In this document: positions 9,873-20,077 of the stretch, piece by piece
Layout of the letters: every line of letters begins with the position of its first letter
Position numbering within the stretch: position 1 is the first letter of the stretch
Source of the DNA: an uncultured delta proteobacterium
Lineage (GTDB): Bacteria; Desulfobacterota; BSN033; UBA1163
Assembly: GCA_963827685.1 (NCBI GenBank)
Contig: CAWHBU010000003.1
Coordinates: 1,056,001-1,120,000, forward strand
Length of the DNA: 64,000 bases
Direction: 5' to 3'
Notes under the pieces: generated by a model
What the model was told of the DNA's origin: nothing
Databases searched by the model: none
What the model saw: only the letters and a program-made list of their open reading frames with translations
Program-made: the position numbers and the translations under genes

Positions 9873-12800
9873 TTAAGGCCGAACCTCCACTGCCTTGTTT
9901 GGAATCTCTCCAAACATCTCCGGAAAGTAGAGGGCTTCCACTCTCGTTGTGGGCAACTGGAAAAATCCGGCCTGGTTTAAGCGAACGGTGTATTCGACCG
10001 TCCACTTCCCTTTCGGCACATACTCATAGTAGGCCCGGAATGCCTCAAAAGACCGTTCCTCATAAGCCGGCCAGACCCACCCTTTCCGTTCTTCCTCTTT
10101 TGTTAAGAGCCTGGAGTCTCTCCCAAGTCCGGTTCCGAGGATCGTGCTTCCCGCAGGAATAGGATCGTTCACAACCACCCAGGTCCTGTCGGCCTGGGCC
10201 TCCAATTCTAATCGTATTCGCACGACGTCTCCCTGGCTCCACTGATTTTTTTGTTTCTGTTCAACGGGAATCACCGTTCTCTTGATCTTGTACCCGCTTG
10301 AGAAAGGCTCCTTCAAAGGAATAGCCGCCAGGCTCTGGATGGTCAGCCATGGCTTTCCTGTTCCTTGATGAGAGAAAAAGAGGTCGTCTCTTTTGGCAGG
10401 CCACGGGAGCTGGGAAACTTTTCCCTTGGGAGAGGTATTCCAATCAACGGCTTGTGTTTGCTTAGATAGGGTCGCACGGGTAGTCCCAGTGACTGGAACA
10501 GATTCAAATTTATTGGAAAACTTTTCCATGGCCAGAACGCCCCAGGCATTGGCAAGCGTTAAGTCCCACGCCCCTCTGATCTGACGGCCTAACGCCCCCT
10601 GGACCATCCTCGGTATGTCTTCTCTCCACTTTTCAGAAGGCAGAAGTGATAAGATGACCCGGACGGCATTGACATCGTTTGAAATCATGAGCCACCACAG
10701 GAAGTCCGTCTTTTCGGTTGAAAAACCCATCACCGTACCCTGAAAATTGAGACGGGCCCGGATAATCTGCTCTGCCTCTTTTCTTCGCTCTTCCCGATTC
10801 GGAATGGTCTGAACATTTTGAAGGATATTGAACCAGTCAATCACGGCTGAGGTCGGCCAGAGATTGGGCTCAATAGAGATGGAGTTGAGCAACTTTGCCT
10901 CTGCCTTTCCACTCCTTGATAATGCTTCGATGGCCGATAGTTTCTTTATGGAAAGATCTGCTGTGGCTAAGGGTGAATATCTCCAGATCTTTCCTTCTAT
11001 AAAATTCCTGAGACCGGTTTCCATCTTTGCTCTGGTCTCATCAGGAATGCTCCATCCTGCTTCATGGCCGATGGCAATGATGTAAGAAGTGAGCACCGGA
11101 CATCCATAAATACAGGGCGGAAAATATTTGACCAACCCGTCTCCGTCCAGGTAAGCGGGAAGATCGGACATCCTCCGTTTCCAGAGATTCTCATCCCGCA
11201 ATGCAACGGCCACGGAGATCATCTGTTCCATGCAGGTATAGGGATATCTTTTCATATATTCGATCACGCCGCTCAGCCCGTCGGCGATCTTTGGTCGGAA
11301 ATTGACCCTTACGCCGCCCCTGCCCGGGACTGCATCCTTCGGCCGCTCCACAGAGAGATGGTATTCCCTTTCCAGCTGAGTCAGAGTGGCCTGGAAAATG
11401 CTCACAGGAACGACCGGCACTACTTTTTGTGTGACTTTGATTCGGTCTGCCTCATTTGTCCCCTTCTCCTTGATTTCGACCTCCCATTTCAATGTCTCAA
11501 CACCGATGGATGCGGTCACATCCCATCCGATCTCCTTTGCTTCTCCCGGTGTTAATGAAACGGTTTGTGGAACGAGGGGAGCTGAAATCCCTTCTGCCTT
11601 TGCAGAAACATCCACCTCCATCTTGCGGTTGGTCGTATTTCGAAGCGTAAACCCGGCCTTAAACCGGTCACCTTCTCTCACAAGAGGAGGCAGCCCGGAT
11701 AAGACCATCAGGTCCTGCGTTGATTGGATCGATGTCGCACCGGTTCCAAAGAGGCCGACCCCACCGATGGCCACAGCCACGATTCGGAAACTGGTGATCG
11801 AATCATTCAGAGGAACTTCAACAGTTGCCTCTCCATTCGCATCCAAAGGAACACGGGCCTTCCACAAGAGGAGGGTATCGAACAATTCCCGTGTATTTTG
11901 CTTCCCTCCGCCTCCGCCCTGGGGCAGCGCCTTCAGACCGAAGTGACGTTTTCCAATCACCTGCATCTGGGCCGTTGAAGTACGAACACCATAACCCCTC
12001 CGTCCCATCATGGCGGAAAGGATTTCCCAACTCTTATTGGGCATCAATTCAAGAAGACCTTGATCCACAGCTGCTATCGTCACCTCACTCCCCGCGGGAG
12101 GGGCCTTTCCTTCTGTGGTCGTCACTTTGATCTTGACCTTGGCTTTCTGCCGAACCTTATAGACCTTTTGATCCGAAGAAACATTCACCTTCAACTCATG
12201 TTCTTTCCATCCTACATTGATCTCGGCGATCCCGAGTTTATACGCAGGCTTTCCAAGATCAACCATCGCTGTTGGCTTCACGCCCGCCACACGGCCTCTG
12301 ACGGCGAGAACAGAAACATAGACGTTCGGAGCGAAAGCACCTTTGACAGGCACCTGGATGACAGGGCTTTTCCCGGAGATCTTTTTGACCCATGCCGTGA
12401 TGATCCCTTCTCTCTCCACAGTGATCAATGCGGTCGCCTCTCTGAATGGCATCCTGACCTGAAAAACAGCCTTTTGGCCGGGCTCATAGCGTTTCCTTTC
12501 GGGAATAAGGTCGATCCGGTCATGATCGCCCACTTCAAACCACCACTCCCCTTTTCCCGCCACCCAGACATCCCTGTGAGCAACCGTTCGATTGCCTGCC
12601 GCATCAAAACTTTCGGCTTGAAGAATGACATTTCCAGAAACGGGCGACTTGGCATCGCAGATCAGAAGGCCTCTGGAATCTGTCTTTCCTTCGCAGAGGG
12701 GAGCAATCTTCTTTATCTCCGTCGAATGCTCGTAAGAATACACACCTCCGACCAGACGCTTTCGATGGGTCAGGGTTTGCCTCTGAAAAAGCTCTACCTT

Positions 12801-15574
12801 GACTGGAGCACCTGAGACAGGTTTTCCAGCGAGGTCAACCACAGCAACATGAAACTTGAAGGCATCCTTCGACACCGCCCACGAGTCCGGCTTGATTCCG
12901 GCGAGATATTTGGAATTCCATAAAGGAATTCTCGAAGAGACGGTCTGGACCTCACCATTGGGATCCCTGAACTCCATTTCAGCCAGTATCTCTTTTGGCG
13001 TTTCGGCCTCGGGCAGATTGGAGAGAGTGGTCCGGCCGGACCCGAATCGGTCCAGAACCAGATCTATAGTCGGAGGCTTCACCTTCTTCTTATCCTCTTT
13101 CTTTACCGCAGTTCCACCTTCCTCTCCTTCGCCTTCCTCTTCGGATTCCAATACCTCCCCTCTCCGGACGACCTCTTCTTTCACAGGGCCGTTGCCAAAG
13201 ATGAAATCTTCAAATCCTTCAGGAGAAGGAATATACCTTAGCTCGATTTCGTATCGAAGCTTGACAGGGAGTAGACTCGCCGCGCCTCCGGCAAGATATT
13301 GAACATTCAAATCAAGAGTGACCTCTTTTGCCTTCACTAATGGAGTGGTGGGGGGCTGGATGGTTCCCTTGGTGAGGGGAATTCGAAACTCCTCCACCCT
13401 GAAGCTTCCCGAATTCCACTTACGGGATGTTTCATAGTCTTGATCCTCAAAATGTTCCTCTCCTTCCCGATCCACATAAATAGACCGCTTCAGCTTTTTG
13501 CTGTGCCGTTTTTCGACGAAGAGGACATCATAGTTTCCAAGCTTTGCATCCTTCGGAATGGACCAAATGGTTTCCGCAACTCCATTTGCATCCCACTTCA
13601 AAGGAAACTCATATTTCTGTTCGCTTCCATAATGCTGGATCGATACAAGAGTGGGCCTCTGATCCTGAGGCACCGGAGCAAACCCCTTGGTCGTATGCTC
13701 GCGAAGGATATGCTTCATATGAACGGTCTCCCCCGCTCTGAGCAATGATCGATCGAATATGGTATGGCCGATGACAGGATCCAGATACGACTCCCTGACC
13801 AGTTGAAATCTCCAGGGTTCGATGCCTTCATCCCAGCTGGAGTGGACAAAGGACATGTCATCCTCGGTGCGGGCTGTTATGAAAAGACCTTGCGAAAGGG
13901 AATGAAGGGCACCCATCTGTGGATAATCTCTATAATCCAACTTGTAAGGGCAGCGGGTAAGAGCATCTATAGGGAGCGATTGTTGGATTGTCGCAATCCC
14001 GCTGACATCGGTCGTTCCTGTCCAGAGGACTTTCTCCTGGCAGTCCTTTATGGTTACCGTTGCATTCCTCACCGGCTCTCCTGTGTCGAGTGTGGTCACC
14101 CATACAAGAGAAGATTCCCTGCCCCACTTGAAATGAACAGAGAGATTGGTCACCAGGACGGCAGTCGGCACGTACATGGGACCCGGATTCTTAAGCAAGG
14201 CGTTTCCTAATATCTCGCTTTCCAGCTCTACGATATAAAGGCCGGGGTCTTTTAACGGAATCCCGACGACCTCAAAAGCCCGTGCACCTGAGGGTTTTGG
14301 AACTTTAAAATCTCTTGCCTTCTTCTCATCACTCAGAATGGATTTTTCCCTTGTTGCTGAAGCCACCTTCCTCAGCCAGGGCTGGACTTCATCGATCTTC
14401 TCAGGAGGGACATTGAGCACTCTCCCCATAACCTTTCCAAGAAGGCCCTCCCCCTTATCCACCTTCATCATTCTCGCTTTGAGTTCAGCTTCCACATTTC
14501 TTAAAGTGACAGGAAGTATTGGCTCGGCCTTCAATTCCAGGATTCCAAACCTGGCGGAAAACTTGGCCAGAGGAGGATATCTATCGGTTCGGACCGTGAG
14601 GGGAAATTTGTCCGCATTGACAAGGGGTCTTCCAGAGATATCTTTAAGTCCGGGTGGAAGCTCGACCACGAAACTCGCATTCTCCGGAAAGGGGCTTTGA
14701 AAAGAGAGCGAGCTCGTCTCTTCTTTGACATTGGGCTTCCATATTTTTCCATCAGGCCCCTTCAATACAATCTTATTTGCCTGATCTTCAGAAATGGCGG
14801 CAGTGAAACGGAGGGACATTGGCTGTATAGGAATGCAGGCCGCCTTCGGATTCTCCCTTTGGCAATGAAACTCGACAGAAAAGAGAGGCCTTACCTGGAA
14901 GCGACGGATCTGATCCTGATCTGTGGCCACCCCGGTCTTTGTCATCACCCCCTTCCCCCAGATCAAGCTGATCTTCGCATCCGAGGGGAACCGTTGCTTG
15001 CTCTGGATCAGGATCCTGGGGAACGGCGGTGGTTTCCTGTACCGGAACCTTGCTTTCAATATCTCTTTCCTCTTATCTCCCTCGATAATTTTGATTCCGA
15101 TCCGGTCCTGAATGCCCTCCACGGAGAAGAAAACATTTTGAATCACAGATTCGTTAATCGGTTCCGCATCCAGAGTGAGAATAAATATCTGCTCCTCATC
15201 GAGCCATTGGCTTCCTTCATAAGGATCAGAAGCCCGAATCGAAGGACCGCCCGTGGAAAAGGAGAAGACCTTTTGCCCTGCCATCTCTTTCCCTGAAAGG
15301 GCCTTCAAACCAAGCTTCACCTTAAACTCGCAGCGAATTCCTGCAGGAAGGTCTTTGTCAAAATCGAAGACCCAATTTTTCCCGTCAGCCCACCGGCTGG
15401 TTCCTTTTTCAGAGCAAACGATATCAAAGGGCTCGACGAGGCCTCTCGGATCACCAAAGGGCACCATCTGCTCAGAAAACCGCACGCTCACCTGACGAAC
15501 GGTTTTAACGGTCCCCTGGGGAGAAAAGAACTCAACAGAAGGTCCGTCCTCTGCATAAACCAAAAGTGTACACG
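9873..15574 (-). pseudogene. Bacterial alpha-2-macroglobulin, 5'-truncated by the adjacent mobile element
   Basis: 1896-aa ORF with MG domains and thioester motif YPYTCMEQ. Only ...CTLLVYA|EDG of the signal peptide remains before the element end; no ATG or SD is left. Confidence 0.85.
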
Positions 15575-15578
15575 CTAC

Positions 15579-16616
15579 CTATTCATGAGCTAAAAAAAGG
15601 GGTAAAATTGGGTGACACTTTTTATTGATGTGAACCCTGATATGTCCACTGGATTGGAGCCAGGATTCCACCGCGATCCTCCAGGCTGATTCTCTGACAG
15701 CCAGTCCAGATTGATTCATTGCCAACAAAATCCTTTCCACCCTTTCCATTACCCAATCATAGATTCCCCTCCTTTGCCGTTTCGTAAAAGCCGGTCTGTT
15801 GCCAGATTCAAAGAATGCCTGACAGGATGTCTTCCCATTCAGGCAAGGCCGGATCCGATGGTTCAGATCATTGACCGCAGCTTCCGCATACGCAGCGATA
15901 TGATCCCGGTAGCCATGCAAACCCAACATAATTTTCTTCCGTAGAGTTGTCTTCACCTCTCGTTGTGACTCTTCGATTGCTCCATTGTAGGGTGCATAAT
16001 ACTCCGGATTGTTCAAAGGTAGAACAAATGATTCGGCTAATACATCGTTGATGGCGGTGTGGTTCATATTCCCTTCATTATCCCGCTTCAACACCAGAGG
16101 CGTGCCATACCGATCAAACTTCTCGCTCAGATATCCAGCCACCTCTTCTCCAACCGGATACTCTCCGGCCATCGGCAAAAACTTGTACCGCGAGCCCAGA
16201 TCCTGCGTATTGTGCAAATAGATTTTACCGGCTATCCCCAGGTCATATGCCGTGAAGTCCATAGCCCACACTACCCCTGGCGTCAGCCATTCGATCCAGC
16301 GAAGATGGGCACGGCGATCCGACTCCAGGTCGTGCCGTACCCGCTCCACCATTCGCCCCAGCTCCCGCCGTGACACACTAAACCGGTACCGTTGATATAA
16401 GCCGGTTGTTCCTACACTCCGCTTCACCCCATGATCTAACGATTGAACCTCCGTGTCAAGAACCGAAGGATCAAACGGTTGTACCTTCTTCGGACCCGGA
16501 CGATTGATTAAAACAACGTTTTCCTTGATCCTGAAGCGCCACCGGTTAAAACTCGCTAAAGGGAGCTGAAGCGTCTTGCAAATCATCCCATAAGGCATCC
16601 CTGTCCGTTCCTTCAT
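15579..16616 (-). CDS. DDE integrase-core transposase, IS3-like OrfB
   Basis: WAMDFT...DLGSRY...KRDNEG...NGAIEE; the frame is open upstream to the A9 run at 16667-16675; the stop lies inside the IR. Confidence 0.85.
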   Translation of the reverse strand: MKERTGMPYGMICKTLQLPLASFNRWRFRIKENVVLINRPGPKKVQPFDPSVLDTEVQSLDHGVKRSVGTTGLYQRYRFSVSRRELGRMVERVRHDLESDRRAHLRWIEWLTPGVVWAMDFTAYDLGIAGKIYLHNTQDLGSRYKFLPMAGEYPVGEEVAGYLSEKFDRYGTPLVLKRDNEGNMNHTAINDVLAESFVLPLNNPEYYAPYNGAIEESQREVKTTLRKKIMLGLHGYRDHIAAYAEAAVNDLNHRIRPCLNGKTSCQAFFESGNRPAFTKRQRRGIYDWVMERVERILLAMNQSGLAVRESAWRIAVESWLQSSGHIRVHINKKCHPILPLFLAHE

Positions 16617-16660
16617 ACTCTCAATCGTCTCTACAACCTTTCTGATCGCTTCTTGCCGAT

Positions 16661-17029
16661 CTATTGTTTTTTTTTAGCGCCGCCGCGGTCCCGAAACTCC
16701 TCATACACCCCCAGGAACTCTTTCACCTTGGTGGTCTGCTTCGCGACATCCAGCTTCTTCTCCAATTCCTGGATCCGCTCCAGAAGCGTCTCCTTCTCTT
16801 CGTCCACAGGCACAGGCGGTCTTCCCGCAGGATAATTCTCCAACGCCAGGGCCATGGCTTTGAGCGACTTCTCCTCCCACTCGTAATACGTCTTGCGCGA
16901 CACCCCCAGCCGCTGCGCTCCCTCCTTTGCAGTTAAGGCTCCACTGCGCACCTGGAGAATCACCAGCGCCCGCTCCCGTGCAAGTTTCTGTTCCTTCTCC
17001 CTCTCGTGCCGCCGTTTCCTTTCCTCCAT
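16661..17029 (-). CDS. HTH plus coiled-coil protein, IS3-like OrfA
   Basis: TAKEGAQRLGVSRKTYYEWE HTH, GRPP, leucine-zipper-like tail; GGAG SD; ends in AAA AAA AAA CAA TAG. Confidence 0.85.
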   Translation of the reverse strand: MEERKRRHEREKEQKLARERALVILQVRSGALTAKEGAQRLGVSRKTYYEWEEKSLKAMALALENYPAGRPPVPVDEEKETLLERIQELEKKLDVAKQTTKVKEFLGVYEEFRDRGGAKKKQ

Positions 17030-18647
17030 CCAAAATCTCCCTGTAGATTGTCAGACCTTCTTCTCTGCCCCAACCTCCTTCAACTCTCCTGGCTTGGCCA
17101 CCGGACTTCCCTGCAGTCTCGCCAAACGCCGCTCCAATCCTTTCATCGCTCCTCCCTTGCTCTTCCGCTCCAACAATACCGCAAGACGCGAGTTCAATGC
17201 CACTCTCTTCTCCATCACCGCAACCCGTGACTGCAATGCCAAGAGCATCCCCTCCATCGCCCGCTCCTGCCACTGGTTCAATAAACTCCACGCGACTCCC
17301 AACTCCTGGCAAACCTCTCCGGGTTTGCGTCTCTCCGTCCATACCGACAACACCGCCCGGCACTTCTCCTCCGCCGTGTGCCCCGAAACCTTCCTCCCTC
17401 TCTTGTCCTCTATCCCTGACCTCTCTACCTTCGGCTTCTCTACCTTGTCCATCGCTCTCCTCCCTCTTAATAGAACGATCTTTCTCTTCTCCTTTGGCGC
17501 CAACTTCATAGATCATCTCCTGCTTTCCACCGCCCTCTTCATCATCCACCATCAAACGCAGCTTTCCCTTCTCCGCCCGTAAGACCACCGACTGCCCCTC
17601 CATCCGCCCTACCATGTAAAACGGCTCCCGCGGCTTCCCCCGCAAGGCCATCTCCAGCACATTCTCTGCGATCCCTTGCTCCATCGTCTTTCGCAGCTCT
17701 GCCTGGATCTCAAAGTACCGATCCGCAGGACACAGCCCTCCAATCCCCTGGTGAGGCCGCTTGTAATTGTAATACTGCACCCACTGCCGAATCCTCTCTC
17801 TCGCCTCCTCAAAACTCCCAAACTGCGCCCGTACCAAGAACTCCTCATAGATCGTCTTCCAAAACCGCTCCACCTTCCCCAGCGTCATCGGATGATGGGC
17901 CTGGGACTTAATGTGTCTGACTCGGTCCTTCCGTAACTCCCGCTCAAACCGAGTCGATCCCCGCCAGTTCGTATATTGCCGTCCCCGATCTGTCAACACC
18001 TCCTTCGGTACCCCATACTCCCCAACTGCCCGACAATACACCTCCAGTACCTGATCCGCCGTCTGGCTCCGGTATAACTCCAAACCCGCCATGTACCGCG
18101 AGTAATCGTCGATAAACCCGATCAAATAGGCATACCGACCCCCCAGGCGAAAGGTGAAGATGTCCGACTGCCACAATTGATTCGGTGTCGACCGCTCAAA
18201 AAACCGAGGACGGGTGATGTTGCGATGGTGTTTCTTTCTGGAAGGAACAATCAACGATTCTGCCCGCAGCGTCCGACGGACTGTCTCCGGGCTCGCGCTG
18301 AGGAAGAACGCACGCTTTAAAAGATGGGAAATCCGCTTGACACCAAAGAGAGGCTCACGCTTCTTGATCTCGACGATCTTCTCGCGTACTGGTCCGGGAA
18401 GCTTCCGTCGTCTCCCCGAGGATATAATACGATTCCGTAACCCCGCTTCTCCCCGTTCCTGATATGCCTTCACCCAACGACAAATGACATCTTTACTGGC
18501 TCCTGCCTCCTCGGACAACAAAGAAACTGGTAACCCTTCTTCTAATCGTAACTTCACACACCGAAGCTTGAACTCAACCCCATACCGCTTCCCATACCGA
18601 CTTCCTTTCCTCTTGCCCTTCTTCTTAACTCCTGCTACATTCTCCAT
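16701..18647 (-). CDS. IS481-like DDE transposase with a long low-complexity C-terminal tail
   Basis: N-terminal HTH; WQSDIF...IDDYSR...TDRGRQY...GKVERF...YNYKRPHQGI; AGGAG SD. Confidence 0.9.
   Translation of the reverse strand: MENVAGVKKKGKRKGSRYGKRYGVEFKLRCVKLRLEEGLPVSLLSEEAGASKDVICRWVKAYQERGEAGLRNRIISSGRRRKLPGPVREKIVEIKKREPLFGVKRISHLLKRAFFLSASPETVRRTLRAESLIVPSRKKHHRNITRPRFFERSTPNQLWQSDIFTFRLGGRYAYLIGFIDDYSRYMAGLELYRSQTADQVLEVYCRAVGEYGVPKEVLTDRGRQYTNWRGSTRFERELRKDRVRHIKSQAHHPMTLGKVERFWKTIYEEFLVRAQFGSFEEARERIRQWVQYYNYKRPHQGIGGLCPADRYFEIQAELRKTMEQGIAENVLEMALRGKPREPFYMVGRMEGQSVVLRAEKGKLRLMVDDEEGGGKQEMIYEVGAKGEEKDRSIKREESDGQGREAEGREVRDRGQEREEGFGAHGGGEVPGGVVGMDGETQTRRGLPGVGSRVEFIEPVAGAGDGGDALGIAVTGCGDGEESGIELASCGIVGAEEQGRSDERIGAAFGETAGKSGGQARRVEGGWGREEGLTIYREILDGGKETAAREGEGTETCTGAGAGDSPGAQWSLNCKGGSAAAGGVAQDVLRVGGEVAQSHGPGVGELSCGKTACACGRREGDASGADPGIGEEAGCREADHQGERVPGGV
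17051..17452 (-). CDS. Transposase-type HTH protein overprinted on the IS481-like gene
   Basis: HTAEEKCRAVLSVW...EVCQELGVAWSLLNQW resembles HTH_Tnp_1; GGAGAG SD before ATG 17452. Confidence 0.78.
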   Translation of the reverse strand: MDKVEKPKVERSGIEDKRGRKVSGHTAEEKCRAVLSVWTERRKPGEVCQELGVAWSLLNQWQERAMEGMLLALQSRVAVMEKRVALNSRLAVLLERKSKGGAMKGLERRLARLQGSPVAKPGELKEVGAEKKV

Positions 18648-18718
18648 GGGTACACTCCTTTCTCCTTCTCAGGAGTGTCACCCATTTCTCCCTTCTTCTT
18701 TAGCTTACGATCTGGTAG

Positions 18719-18807
18719 TTAGCTCACCACACACTGGTTTACACACAGAAGATCGAGCGTTTCAAGTATTGGCTCGCTTTCAACCGATTATTGCCGGAGG
18801 AAATTGA
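18719..18807 (+). pseudogene. 3' remnant of a cassette gene cut by the element
   Basis: Open frame ...SSPHTGLHTEDRAFQVLARFQPIIAGGN* ends 7 bp before an attC site. Confidence 0.45.
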
Positions 18808-18814
18808 ATGGTCT

Positions 18815-18882
18815 ACCGAACAACCGGCTGAATCTTCCAAATGAAAAGCGTCGCCATTTACTTCCAGTTTAGCCGCAACGTT
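18815..18882 (+). other. Integron attC site 1, interrupted after GTT
   Basis: R'' ACCGAAC, 5 bp, L'' GCTGAAT ... L' GTTTAGC, 6 bp, GTT; GTTAGGC resumes at 19041. Confidence 0.8.
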
Positions 18883-19040
18883 GAGGCTGTAGAAAAAGTC
18901 AATCTCGATCGAATCCGATGAGTTGGAAAAAGTGTGACCTCTCAGGATGCTCTGTATGAGACGATCTCATGCTTGGGAGGGGTCAAGTGACCCCCGAAAA
19001 CACCGTTCTCACTCATCAAAAGGACTTTTTCTACAGGTTC
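18883..19040. mobile_element. 158-bp MITE with IS1182-like ends, inserted in attC1
   Basis: TIRs GAGGCTGTAGAAAAAGTC / GACTTTTTCTACAGGTTC (16/18); GTT on both flanks. Confidence 0.85.
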
Positions 19041-19070: not shown

Positions 19071-19829
19071 ATGAGCCCCAAACCCCATAAAACGTCGATG
19101 GAAAAACTACCCAAAACACTTATTGAAGAAATAAATCGTATTCTCCGATCTCTCTCACCTAGGGAGGAAAAAGTCCTGAGATTGCGGTTCGGCCTTGGGG
19201 GAATGATGTCTGATGAGATCGCTTCAGGTGCATACGGACGATTATTAACCGCTATATTTGGTGAAAAGGCTATAAAATCAATGATACAGTCCTACCGCCC
19301 TTCAGTCGCACTTACTGAAGTTGTTGAGAGAGTGACACAATTAACACCTGAATTAATAGAACATCTAAAAAAGCATCACCAGGCTATCGATAAAATCCCT
19401 TGGAATATCTTTGAGCACTTAATTGCTGAGTTTTTTGCAGCTCAAGGATATGATGACGTTCGACTCGTTGGTCGTGATCAGGCTACTTCTGCCGATATTT
19501 ATGCTTCACACACTTGGGCCCCTTTGGGAACAAATCTAAGAGTTTTCGTTGAAGTGAAACGAATAAAAGGATTAGTTGGGGTTGAGGTGATAAATGAGGT
19601 TCTTGGCGCTATGTTTTCAGAGAGACCCACATTTGGCTGGCACGCTGCAATAATTGTTTCAACTGGAGGATTCAGACGTTTACGAAAATTCTCCAAACAT
19701 GAGCTCTCATATCGGGGGTTGGAATTAAAAGATCGTAATGACTTGCTTCGTTGGTTGGATAACTATCGTCCGAATAAAAATGGGTTGTGGCTCCCTTACC
19801 CCTTGACAAAAGCGCCCCGGCTCAACTGA
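19071..19829 (+). CDS. Mrr-like PD-(D/E)xK restriction endonuclease with an N-terminal sigma70 region-4.1-like segment (gene cassette)
   Basis: FEHLIAEFFAAQGY...ADIYA...VEVKR...IIVSTGGF (Mrr_cat pattern); N-terminal LSPREEKVLRLRFGL; bounded by GTTAGGC and attC2. Confidence 0.82.
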   Translation: MSPKPHKTSMEKLPKTLIEEINRILRSLSPREEKVLRLRFGLGGMMSDEIASGAYGRLLTAIFGEKAIKSMIQSYRPSVALTEVVERVTQLTPELIEHLKKHHQAIDKIPWNIFEHLIAEFFAAQGYDDVRLVGRDQATSADIYASHTWAPLGTNLRVFVEVKRIKGLVGVEVINEVLGAMFSERPTFGWHAAIIVSTGGFRRLRKFSKHELSYRGLELKDRNDLLRWLDNYRPNKNGLWLPYPLTKAPRLN

Positions 19830-19898: not shown

Positions 19899-19970
19899 GC
19901 CTAACCATCGCATGAACTCAGACTGGGAAAAAGCCTCCCGGCTCTTTCCCAGCTGGTTATCCCTGACGTT
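19899..19970 (+). other. Integron attC site 2, interrupted after GTT
   Basis: R'' GCCTAAC, 5 bp, L'' CATGAAC; inner stem CTGGGAAAAAGCC/GGCTCTTTCCCAG; L' GGTTATC, 6 bp, GTT. Confidence 0.85.
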
Positions 19971-20077
19971 GAGGCTGTAGAAAAAGTCCTGAAAGCATGA
20001 TAATATCGCTATATCAGTAACAGAAAAGAGAGCGGGGACCGCTTAGGAGGAACTGAATGGCGAGATACAAAGAATAG
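19971..20077 (+). mobile_element. Left end of an IS1182-like element with an aborted transposase start
   Basis: Same 18-bp GAGGCTGTAGAAAAAGTC end; AGGAGG SD followed by MARYKE* at 20057-20077. Confidence 0.7.

Follow-up and report, generated by a model that had tools for sequence, protein, structure and literature searches.

An insertion sequence with two DDE transposase genes, related to the IS3 and IS481 families, in an uncultured delta proteobacterium

The stretch of DNA considered here, hereafter the window, comprises 64,000 nucleotides (nt) of an uncultured delta proteobacterium (GenBank assembly GCA_963827685.1, contig CAWHBU010000003.1, positions 1,056,001 to 1,120,000 of the forward strand). 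The minus strand of the window carries a copy of an active insertion sequence (IS). It moves as a single unit and belongs to a widespread lineage with kinship to the IS3 and IS481 families. Its span, window positions 15567-18726 or 3160 bp, is given by the flank alignment of four identical genomic copies; a search of the window's own genome places it at four sites at 100% identity and at one at 83%, all covering 15567-18726. The gene order is Tnp1, HTH-1, HTH-2, DDE-2, HTH standing for helix-turn-helix and DDE for the catalytic Asp-Asp-Glu triad. An earlier note, made from the sequence, had reported four co-oriented open reading frames (ORFs) inside the repeats. All four are present on the minus strand: an IS481-like gene, two HTH_Tnp_1-type ORFs of 152 and 122 amino acids (aa), and one of 345 aa that matches rve weakly. 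The features, in window coordinates, are:

15567-18726, minus strand: whole insertion sequence; four copies at 100%, a fifth at 83%.
18674-18726, minus strand: left inverted repeat, 53 bp, with tip TG, block CTAACTACCAGATC and inner box GGGTGACACT at 18674-18683, the box being kept in all clades including L055-L058.
18646-18685, minus strand: hairpin of the inner repeat box with the Shine-Dalgarno and start region of Tnp1, from RNA folding.
17499-18647, minus strand: Tnp1, conserved part, 383 aa, IS481-like HTH plus DDE, with D162, D220 and E260; matches NF033577 and Pfam rve, rve_3 and HTH_32.
16701-17498, minus strand: extension in the Tnp1 frame, rich in Gly, Glu and Arg and poorly conserved, overlapping HTH-1 and most of HTH-2 in another frame; the whole ORF has 648 aa.
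17051-17509, minus strand: HTH-1, 152 aa, OrfA-like paralogue (PF01527, 24.5 bits), found in four-gene clades only and missing in the three-gene L055-L058.
16661-17029, minus strand: HTH-2, 122 aa, IS3-type OrfA, with HTH_28, HTH_23 and HTH_Tnp_1 matches.
16667-16675, minus strand: A9 run, slippage site from HTH-2 into the DDE-2 frame (-1); A7-A9 run in relatives.
15579-16673, minus strand: DDE-2 (OrfB frame), including the ATG-started ORF of 345 aa at 15579-16616; DD(35)E integrase-like core with D120, D179, E215 and K222.
15567-15619, minus strand: right inverted repeat, 53 bp, ending ...GGTAGCGTGTACA and holding the DDE-2 stop codon.

The 45-nt inverted repeat described previously (15575-15619 and 18674-18718) exists and is 73% complementary, but the true boundaries lie 8 bp further out on each side and the repeats are 53 bp long. 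So delimited, the window element reads 5'-TGAGCTAACTACC...GGTAGCGTGTACA-3', with tips of the form 5'-TG...CA-3' (TGA...ACA in the window copy), and its relatives start with TGT(G/C)CTAAC and finish with GCGTG(N)ACA, their tips being TGT...ACA; the earlier note was therefore wrong in excluding ends of the TG/TGT type. The repeats consist of two conserved parts. An inner box, GGGTGACAC, about 45 bp in, is retained even by L055-L058 (loci are cited by L numbers), and a tip part differs among clades, its left and right versions co-varying. The left-tip boundary is uncertain in the single diverged copy L005. As had been claimed, the last stop codon, that of DDE-2 at 15579-15581, falls within the right repeat, and no further copy of the end motifs exists inside the element when up to two mismatches are allowed for the inner box and up to three for the tip motif. 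The window has two other motif matches, at about 29.3 kb and 33.4 kb; both fall within housekeeping genes and are put down to chance. In the copy L003, the DNA directly outside the right end resembles two partial left tips (TGAGCT TGAGCTAA), which may be left over from abutted ends or reflect insertion beside an end-like sequence.

Tnp1 is a near miss of the curated IS481 model NCBIfam NF033577, scoring 216.1 bits for a cutoff of 224 and aligning with model positions 2-284 of 284. DDE-2 alone gives a weak rve match (E = 1e-3); a profile built from 106 of its relatives, searched against the PDB, finds retroviral integrase cores, that of mouse mammary tumour virus with E = 8e-14. Its AlphaFold model reaches a mean predicted local distance difference test (pLDDT) of 93.3 with the 106-row alignment, an earlier 10-row alignment having given 62, and the best Foldseek matches of this model are integrase catalytic cores (TM-score on target 0.80-0.86). 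In DDE-2, D120, D179 and E215 are invariant in the 106 diverse relatives, the glutamate standing 36 residues past the second aspartate, with K222 at +7; among distinct sequences the counts are 93/93 for D120 and D179 and 92/93 for E215 and K222. The triad of Tnp1 is kept to the same degree among distinct sequences (D162 in 59/60, D220 and E260 in 60/60), and the earlier observation that both cores keep D-D-E thus extends to the relatives, in which both triads are invariant or nearly so. In an HHalign comparison Tnp1 and DDE-2 align at 96.9% probability over 261 columns, with 16% identity and with their catalytic residues matched; on this alignment, the two are distant paralogues. A read-through fusion of Tnp1 and DDE-2 was considered and rejected: they share a frame in the window copy, but one to three stops intervene and the frames differ in distant relatives.

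How DDE-2 is expressed can be read from the junction with the gene before it. HTH-1 and HTH-2 share a frame and DDE-2 lies at -1 to both, its own frame opening exactly at the A9 run that ends HTH-2. A run of this kind is present in 112/112 elements having both parts (A7 in 3, A8 in 97, A9 in 12), and the DDE-2 frame relative to OrfA is -1 in 107 of them and +1 in the other five, a group including the distant L055, in which TGA follows an A9 run. The peptide from the run to the ATG is conserved in the DDE-2 frame of nine diverged elements (KK-P/T-IDRQEAIRRVVEIIE), whose OrfA frame stops at varying places; the "ATG" itself is ATA or ATT in L014, L053 and L054. With conservation extending upstream of an ATG that is itself variable, DDE-2 would be reached by read-through from OrfA. 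At the level of sequence, HTH-2 and the DDE-2 core thus have the make-up of an IS3-style OrfAB, an OrfA fused by slippage to its catalytic partner. A constant run with a variable direction of shift fits transcriptional slippage (reportedly treated in Baranov et al. 2005) no worse than a ribosomal frameshift fixed at -1; coverage of the A run in contigs of public runs is too thin to reveal slippage. An HTH-2 query also matches the HTH-1 region of one relative at 32% identity, and the two HTH genes are therefore paralogues. What had been put forward as an undescribed IS class with two DDE enzymes is upheld in part: a lineage with two DDE genes moving as a unit is supported, but the second DDE can be recognised as an OrfA/OrfAB module of the IS3 kind, joined by slippage, and the transpososome proposed with it, one enzyme per end or per step, stays a hypothesis.

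The arrangement recurs well beyond the window. The order Tnp1, HTH-1, HTH-2, DDE-2 is kept in L013-L018, L020, L022, L023, L028, L053, L054 and L060-L062. Eighty metagenome loci with 79-87% DDE-2 identity were recovered by a profile scan which used the 10-row alignment and yielded only close relatives; 38 of them extend at least 2040 nt upstream and 36 of these 38 hold a whole Tnp1 and both HTH genes, and the shorter loci fit the gene order as far as their sequence reaches (42/42). Every DDE-2 relative with sufficient flank has an IS481-like gene upstream. This includes the distant L055-L058, three-gene relatives in the window's own phylum with Tnp1, one OrfA and DDE-2, for which Tnp1 and DDE-2 identities are 64% and 38% (L055) or 43-44% and 29-33% (L056-L058). 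Within the window's phylum a match occurs in 15/401 genomes. In a second phylum DDE-2 is found in 9/401 sampled genomes, and the copies examined there belong to a four-gene clade (about 70% identity in Tnp1, about 48% in DDE-2) with five copies in one genome and two in another; it is on this clade and on the four loci L055-L058 that the evidence from deep relatives rests. Identical copies number 5, 5 and 2 in other genomes. Among 1.84 billion representative proteins, 240 relatives of DDE-2 are found at E <= 1e-30 and 560 at E <= 1e-10, mostly labelled "hypothetical protein" in the source databases; counted as sequence clusters at 50% identity, those at E <= 1e-30 number at least 240. No plasmid match was obtained with tblastn. 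Relatives also occur in contigs from three metatranscriptome libraries of two studies, contigs which by themselves do not show transcription; in contigs of public runs, the only form of these data searched, no joint linking the two ends was seen. The check proposed earlier, for four-gene synteny with conserved ends, has a positive outcome: the order recurs in relatives, in metagenomes and in two phyla, and the inner box in all clades.

Each module resembles a known family, and an element of this kind might have arisen by the chance nesting or fusion of an IS481-type with an IS3-type element. The trees of the two cores, a comparison which the earlier note had suggested, argue otherwise: the major splits are common to the Tnp1 tree and the DDE-2 tree, and pairwise distances are correlated at r = 0.95 (Mantel P = 2e-4, a significance overstated by the kinship of the rows). 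There is a single pair of repeats with no internal end motifs, the whole unit has been copied identically four times, and the same order is found in four tiers of divergence and in two phyla. A free-standing half with its own ends, to which the earlier note had looked as the sign of chance nesting, was not found among the loci examined. Incomplete copies are of other kinds, namely L021 with a 5' truncation, the internal fragments L024 and L025, L027, whose deletion fuses Tnp1 at residue ~312 with DDE-2 at residue ~162, L028, interrupted by about 1.5 kb inserted in Tnp1, and L067, a solo left end consisting of its first 170 nt in a same-genus genome. On the other side, synonymous divergence is unequal between the modules (0.53 against 1.08 for L001 and L005), which hints at exchange between lineages. 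Chance nesting is largely refuted, and as an account of the element it is now highly improbable. As an observation apart, the roughly two-fold difference in synonymous divergence between the Tnp1 and DDE-2 halves of one and the same pair is seen for L001 against each of L005, L053 and L054, and the DDE-2 tree, but not that of Tnp1, places L001 with L014; together these suggest that recombination may take place between element lineages.

Neither core is decaying, a possibility which had been raised. The median ratio of non-synonymous to synonymous divergence (dN/dS) is 0.10 for Tnp1, 0.24 for HTH-1, 0.26 for HTH-2 and 0.145 for DDE-2, over 35-36 pairs of nine diverged elements, with both triads near-invariant; all four genes are, by this measure, under purifying selection. 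A rival account is that the element has one working transposase, most likely the better-conserved Tnp1, and that the other module has been co-opted, and is kept, as a regulator, an inhibitor, or a factor for end binding or target choice. Many IS elements do use transposase derivatives as regulators, the OrfA of IS911 for example, and DDE-2 does change faster than Tnp1 (dN 0.255 against 0.080, L001 against L053). A non-catalytic regulator, however, needs neither D, D and E nor the lysine at +7, and yet these are invariant in the 106 relatives and kept in 92-93 of 93 sequences; the triad of Tnp1 is equally kept. Co-option of either module is therefore unlikely.

A further possibility is that two redundant engines share one chassis, each enzyme moving the same ends alone, for instance under different conditions or on different targets. 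The paralogy of the enzymes, which have the same domain plan (HHalign 96.9%), would suit this arrangement, as would the two conserved repeat blocks, which either enzyme could read. Redundant genes in a selfish element should often be lost, however, and here both are intact in every recently amplified set; moreover relatives with as little as about 30% identity still have the pair, and the copies with a single module are fragments. Redundancy is for these reasons quite improbable, more so than co-option.

The best explanation of the whole, with a probability of about 0.65, is that of an active two-enzyme insertion sequence, which moves as a unit, makes its OrfAB by slippage, needs both enzymes and divides the chemistry between them. 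Since no selfish element would preserve an unused catalytic triad across hundreds of sequence clusters, we infer that both enzymes would be catalytically needed for spread. The element would move whole between its two-part repeats of 53 bp, and Tnp1 and DDE-2 would probably divide the chemistry in such a way that one processes the donor and the other joins the target; alternatively, each enzyme might handle one strand.

No target-site duplication was found in 24 insertions examined, 17 plus 7 of the second-phylum clade. Among the 17, no repeat of at least 3 bp occurs in more than two at any offset within 3 bp (best 2/17, 3 bp); among the 7, no combination of length and offset has two matches, except for two 2-bp cases. 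Left flanks end with AC in 6/17 insertions. A pair of enzymes placed at opposed target phosphates could insert the element without a staggered cut, and action at directly opposed phosphates would explain why target duplications are absent. A more specific version of the two-enzyme reading, namely a new IS family in which the two paralogous DDE enzymes form an obligate pair, either one per strand or as copy-out plus paste-in, and join directly opposed target phosphates, is tentative, and on balance rather doubtful.

Several points weigh against the two-enzyme reading. That either protein is produced and active is presumed from the sequences. L058 has an alanine at the first aspartate of Tnp1, and among the metagenome loci L101 is without Tnp1 and L147 has it truncated; all three are single copies and may be dead. 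The +1 frame of the five elements mentioned above means that the slippage mechanism is not uniform, and the dN of DDE-2, two to three times that of Tnp1, would also fit an accessory role. Finally, a search of a same-genus genome gave no clean empty site, and small target deletions may therefore accompany insertion; for the window copy the search yielded only a same-family orthologue of the interrupted gene, and at the L002 site the difference from the same-genus genome is 4.8 kb, more than the element alone.

The window copy interrupts the signal-peptide part of a gene for an alpha-2-macroglobulin-like protein of 1896 aa (window 9873-15563 and 18727-18790). Exact removal of the element keeps the frame of this gene, with an in-frame TAA five codons upstream of the junction, and the intact N-terminus is present in the orthologue of a same-family genome. 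Next to the element (window 18864-19000) lies a repeat of about 130 nt which recurs, at 78-88% identity, on five or more other contigs. Its core of 14-32 nt (CTGTAGAAAAAGTC...) recurs at 18869-18900, 19021-19036 and 19957-19990, in direct and inverted orientation, and flanks a 252-aa ORF at 19071-19829. The left flank of the element copy L003 resembles this same repeat.

In the left repeat, the inner box forms a pairing with GGAGTGTACCC, which stands immediately before the ATG of Tnp1. The resulting hairpin has a folding energy of -21.4 kcal/mol (z = -5.9; 0/200 shuffles fold equally well), and both of its arms are retained in relatives. In other insertion sequences, end hairpins sequester the ribosome-binding site when transcription enters from outside. 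By analogy, the hairpin described here would mask the ribosome-binding site of Tnp1 in transcripts reading in from outside; alternatively, the paired sequences could be a candidate operator. A simple sigma-70 scan of the left end gave no convincing promoter.

Another peculiar feature of the element is the long tail of Tnp1, which overlaps the HTH genes. The extension has no stop in 265 codons; in the Tnp1 core, the frame with the same relative position contains 13 stops over 383 codons. Upon shuffling of synonymous codons in the HTH genes about 4-5.6 stops are expected, for 0 observed in eight elements and 2 in L014, the synonymous-permutation P for an open tail being 0 to 0.016 in each of the nine. 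The Tnp1 frame is open over 495-666 aa in 47 distinct elements, and the proteins called in a public collection are mostly of 620-670 aa. The tail is acidic and glycine-rich, with a length of 110-280 aa, and in L055 it is largely free of overlap with any other ORF. It is read here as a real, probably disordered C-terminal extension, encoded by overlapping genes. Third codon positions carry T in 5-15% of cases in the HTH genes, which are thus depleted of it, versus 20-29% in other genes.

As for known systems, members of the IS3 family (IS911, IS3, IS150) measure about 1.2-1.5 kb, have orfA and orfB only, generate target duplications of 3-5 bp and encode a DD(35)E enzyme with K/R at +7. The element is like them in having an HTH OrfA followed by a DDE OrfB in another frame, an A-rich slippery run joining both, a lysine seven residues past the E of its DD(35)E, TG...CA tips and a right repeat overlapping the end of the transposase gene. 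It differs in that DDE-2 scores 27.2 bits on NCBIfam NF033516, well short of the cutoff of 160, in the addition of a complete IS481-like Tnp1 and, in this clade, of a second OrfA, in its size of 3.1-3.2 kb, and in the lack of a target duplication in the 24 insertions.

IS481 elements have one transposase gene without frameshift, a size of about 1-1.3 kb, TGT...ACA tips and a target duplication of 4-15 bp. Discrete target-duplication lengths are reported for members of this family (PMC10045372). Here, Tnp1 is likewise a single ORF with HTH and DDE parts that aligns with the model from end to end, and the relatives' tips are TGT...ACA; unlike IS481, its score remains just below the cutoff, its tail overlaps other genes, three further genes are present and no target duplication is seen. 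The element resembles a hybrid of IS3 and IS481, which falls outside both families by curated score, size, gene content and target duplication. Full-text literature searches, in the texts open to them and with ISfinder not covered, gave no description of an IS with two DDE transposases. The element consists of known parts in an apparently undescribed, deeply conserved arrangement, and its lineage is apparently unnamed.

The general view is that a bacterial insertion sequence needs a single catalytic transposase. A large family with multi-copy sets in two phyla breaks this pattern, and poses the question of how DDE chemistry might be split between two proteins. There are consequences for annotation too, because the OrfA genes are hidden beneath the long Tnp1 ORF, and tools that seek target duplications will miss such elements. 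More than one transposition protein is encoded by Tn7 (TnsA and TnsB), IS21 (IstA and IstB) and Tn554 (two tyrosine recombinases). To our knowledge, the multi-protein systems described so far bring in a nuclease or an ATPase rather than another DDE enzyme, and we know of no described counterpart of a hetero-enzymatic DDE transpososome. In Pfam and NCBIfam scans the four ORFs match HTH and rve/transposase families only, with neither a TnsA-type nuclease nor an AAA+ ATPase among them. The likeness to Tn554 resides in the presence of two paralogous recombinases in one element; what sets the present element apart from Tn7, IS21 and Tn554 alike is that both partners are of the DDE type, with an RNase-H fold.

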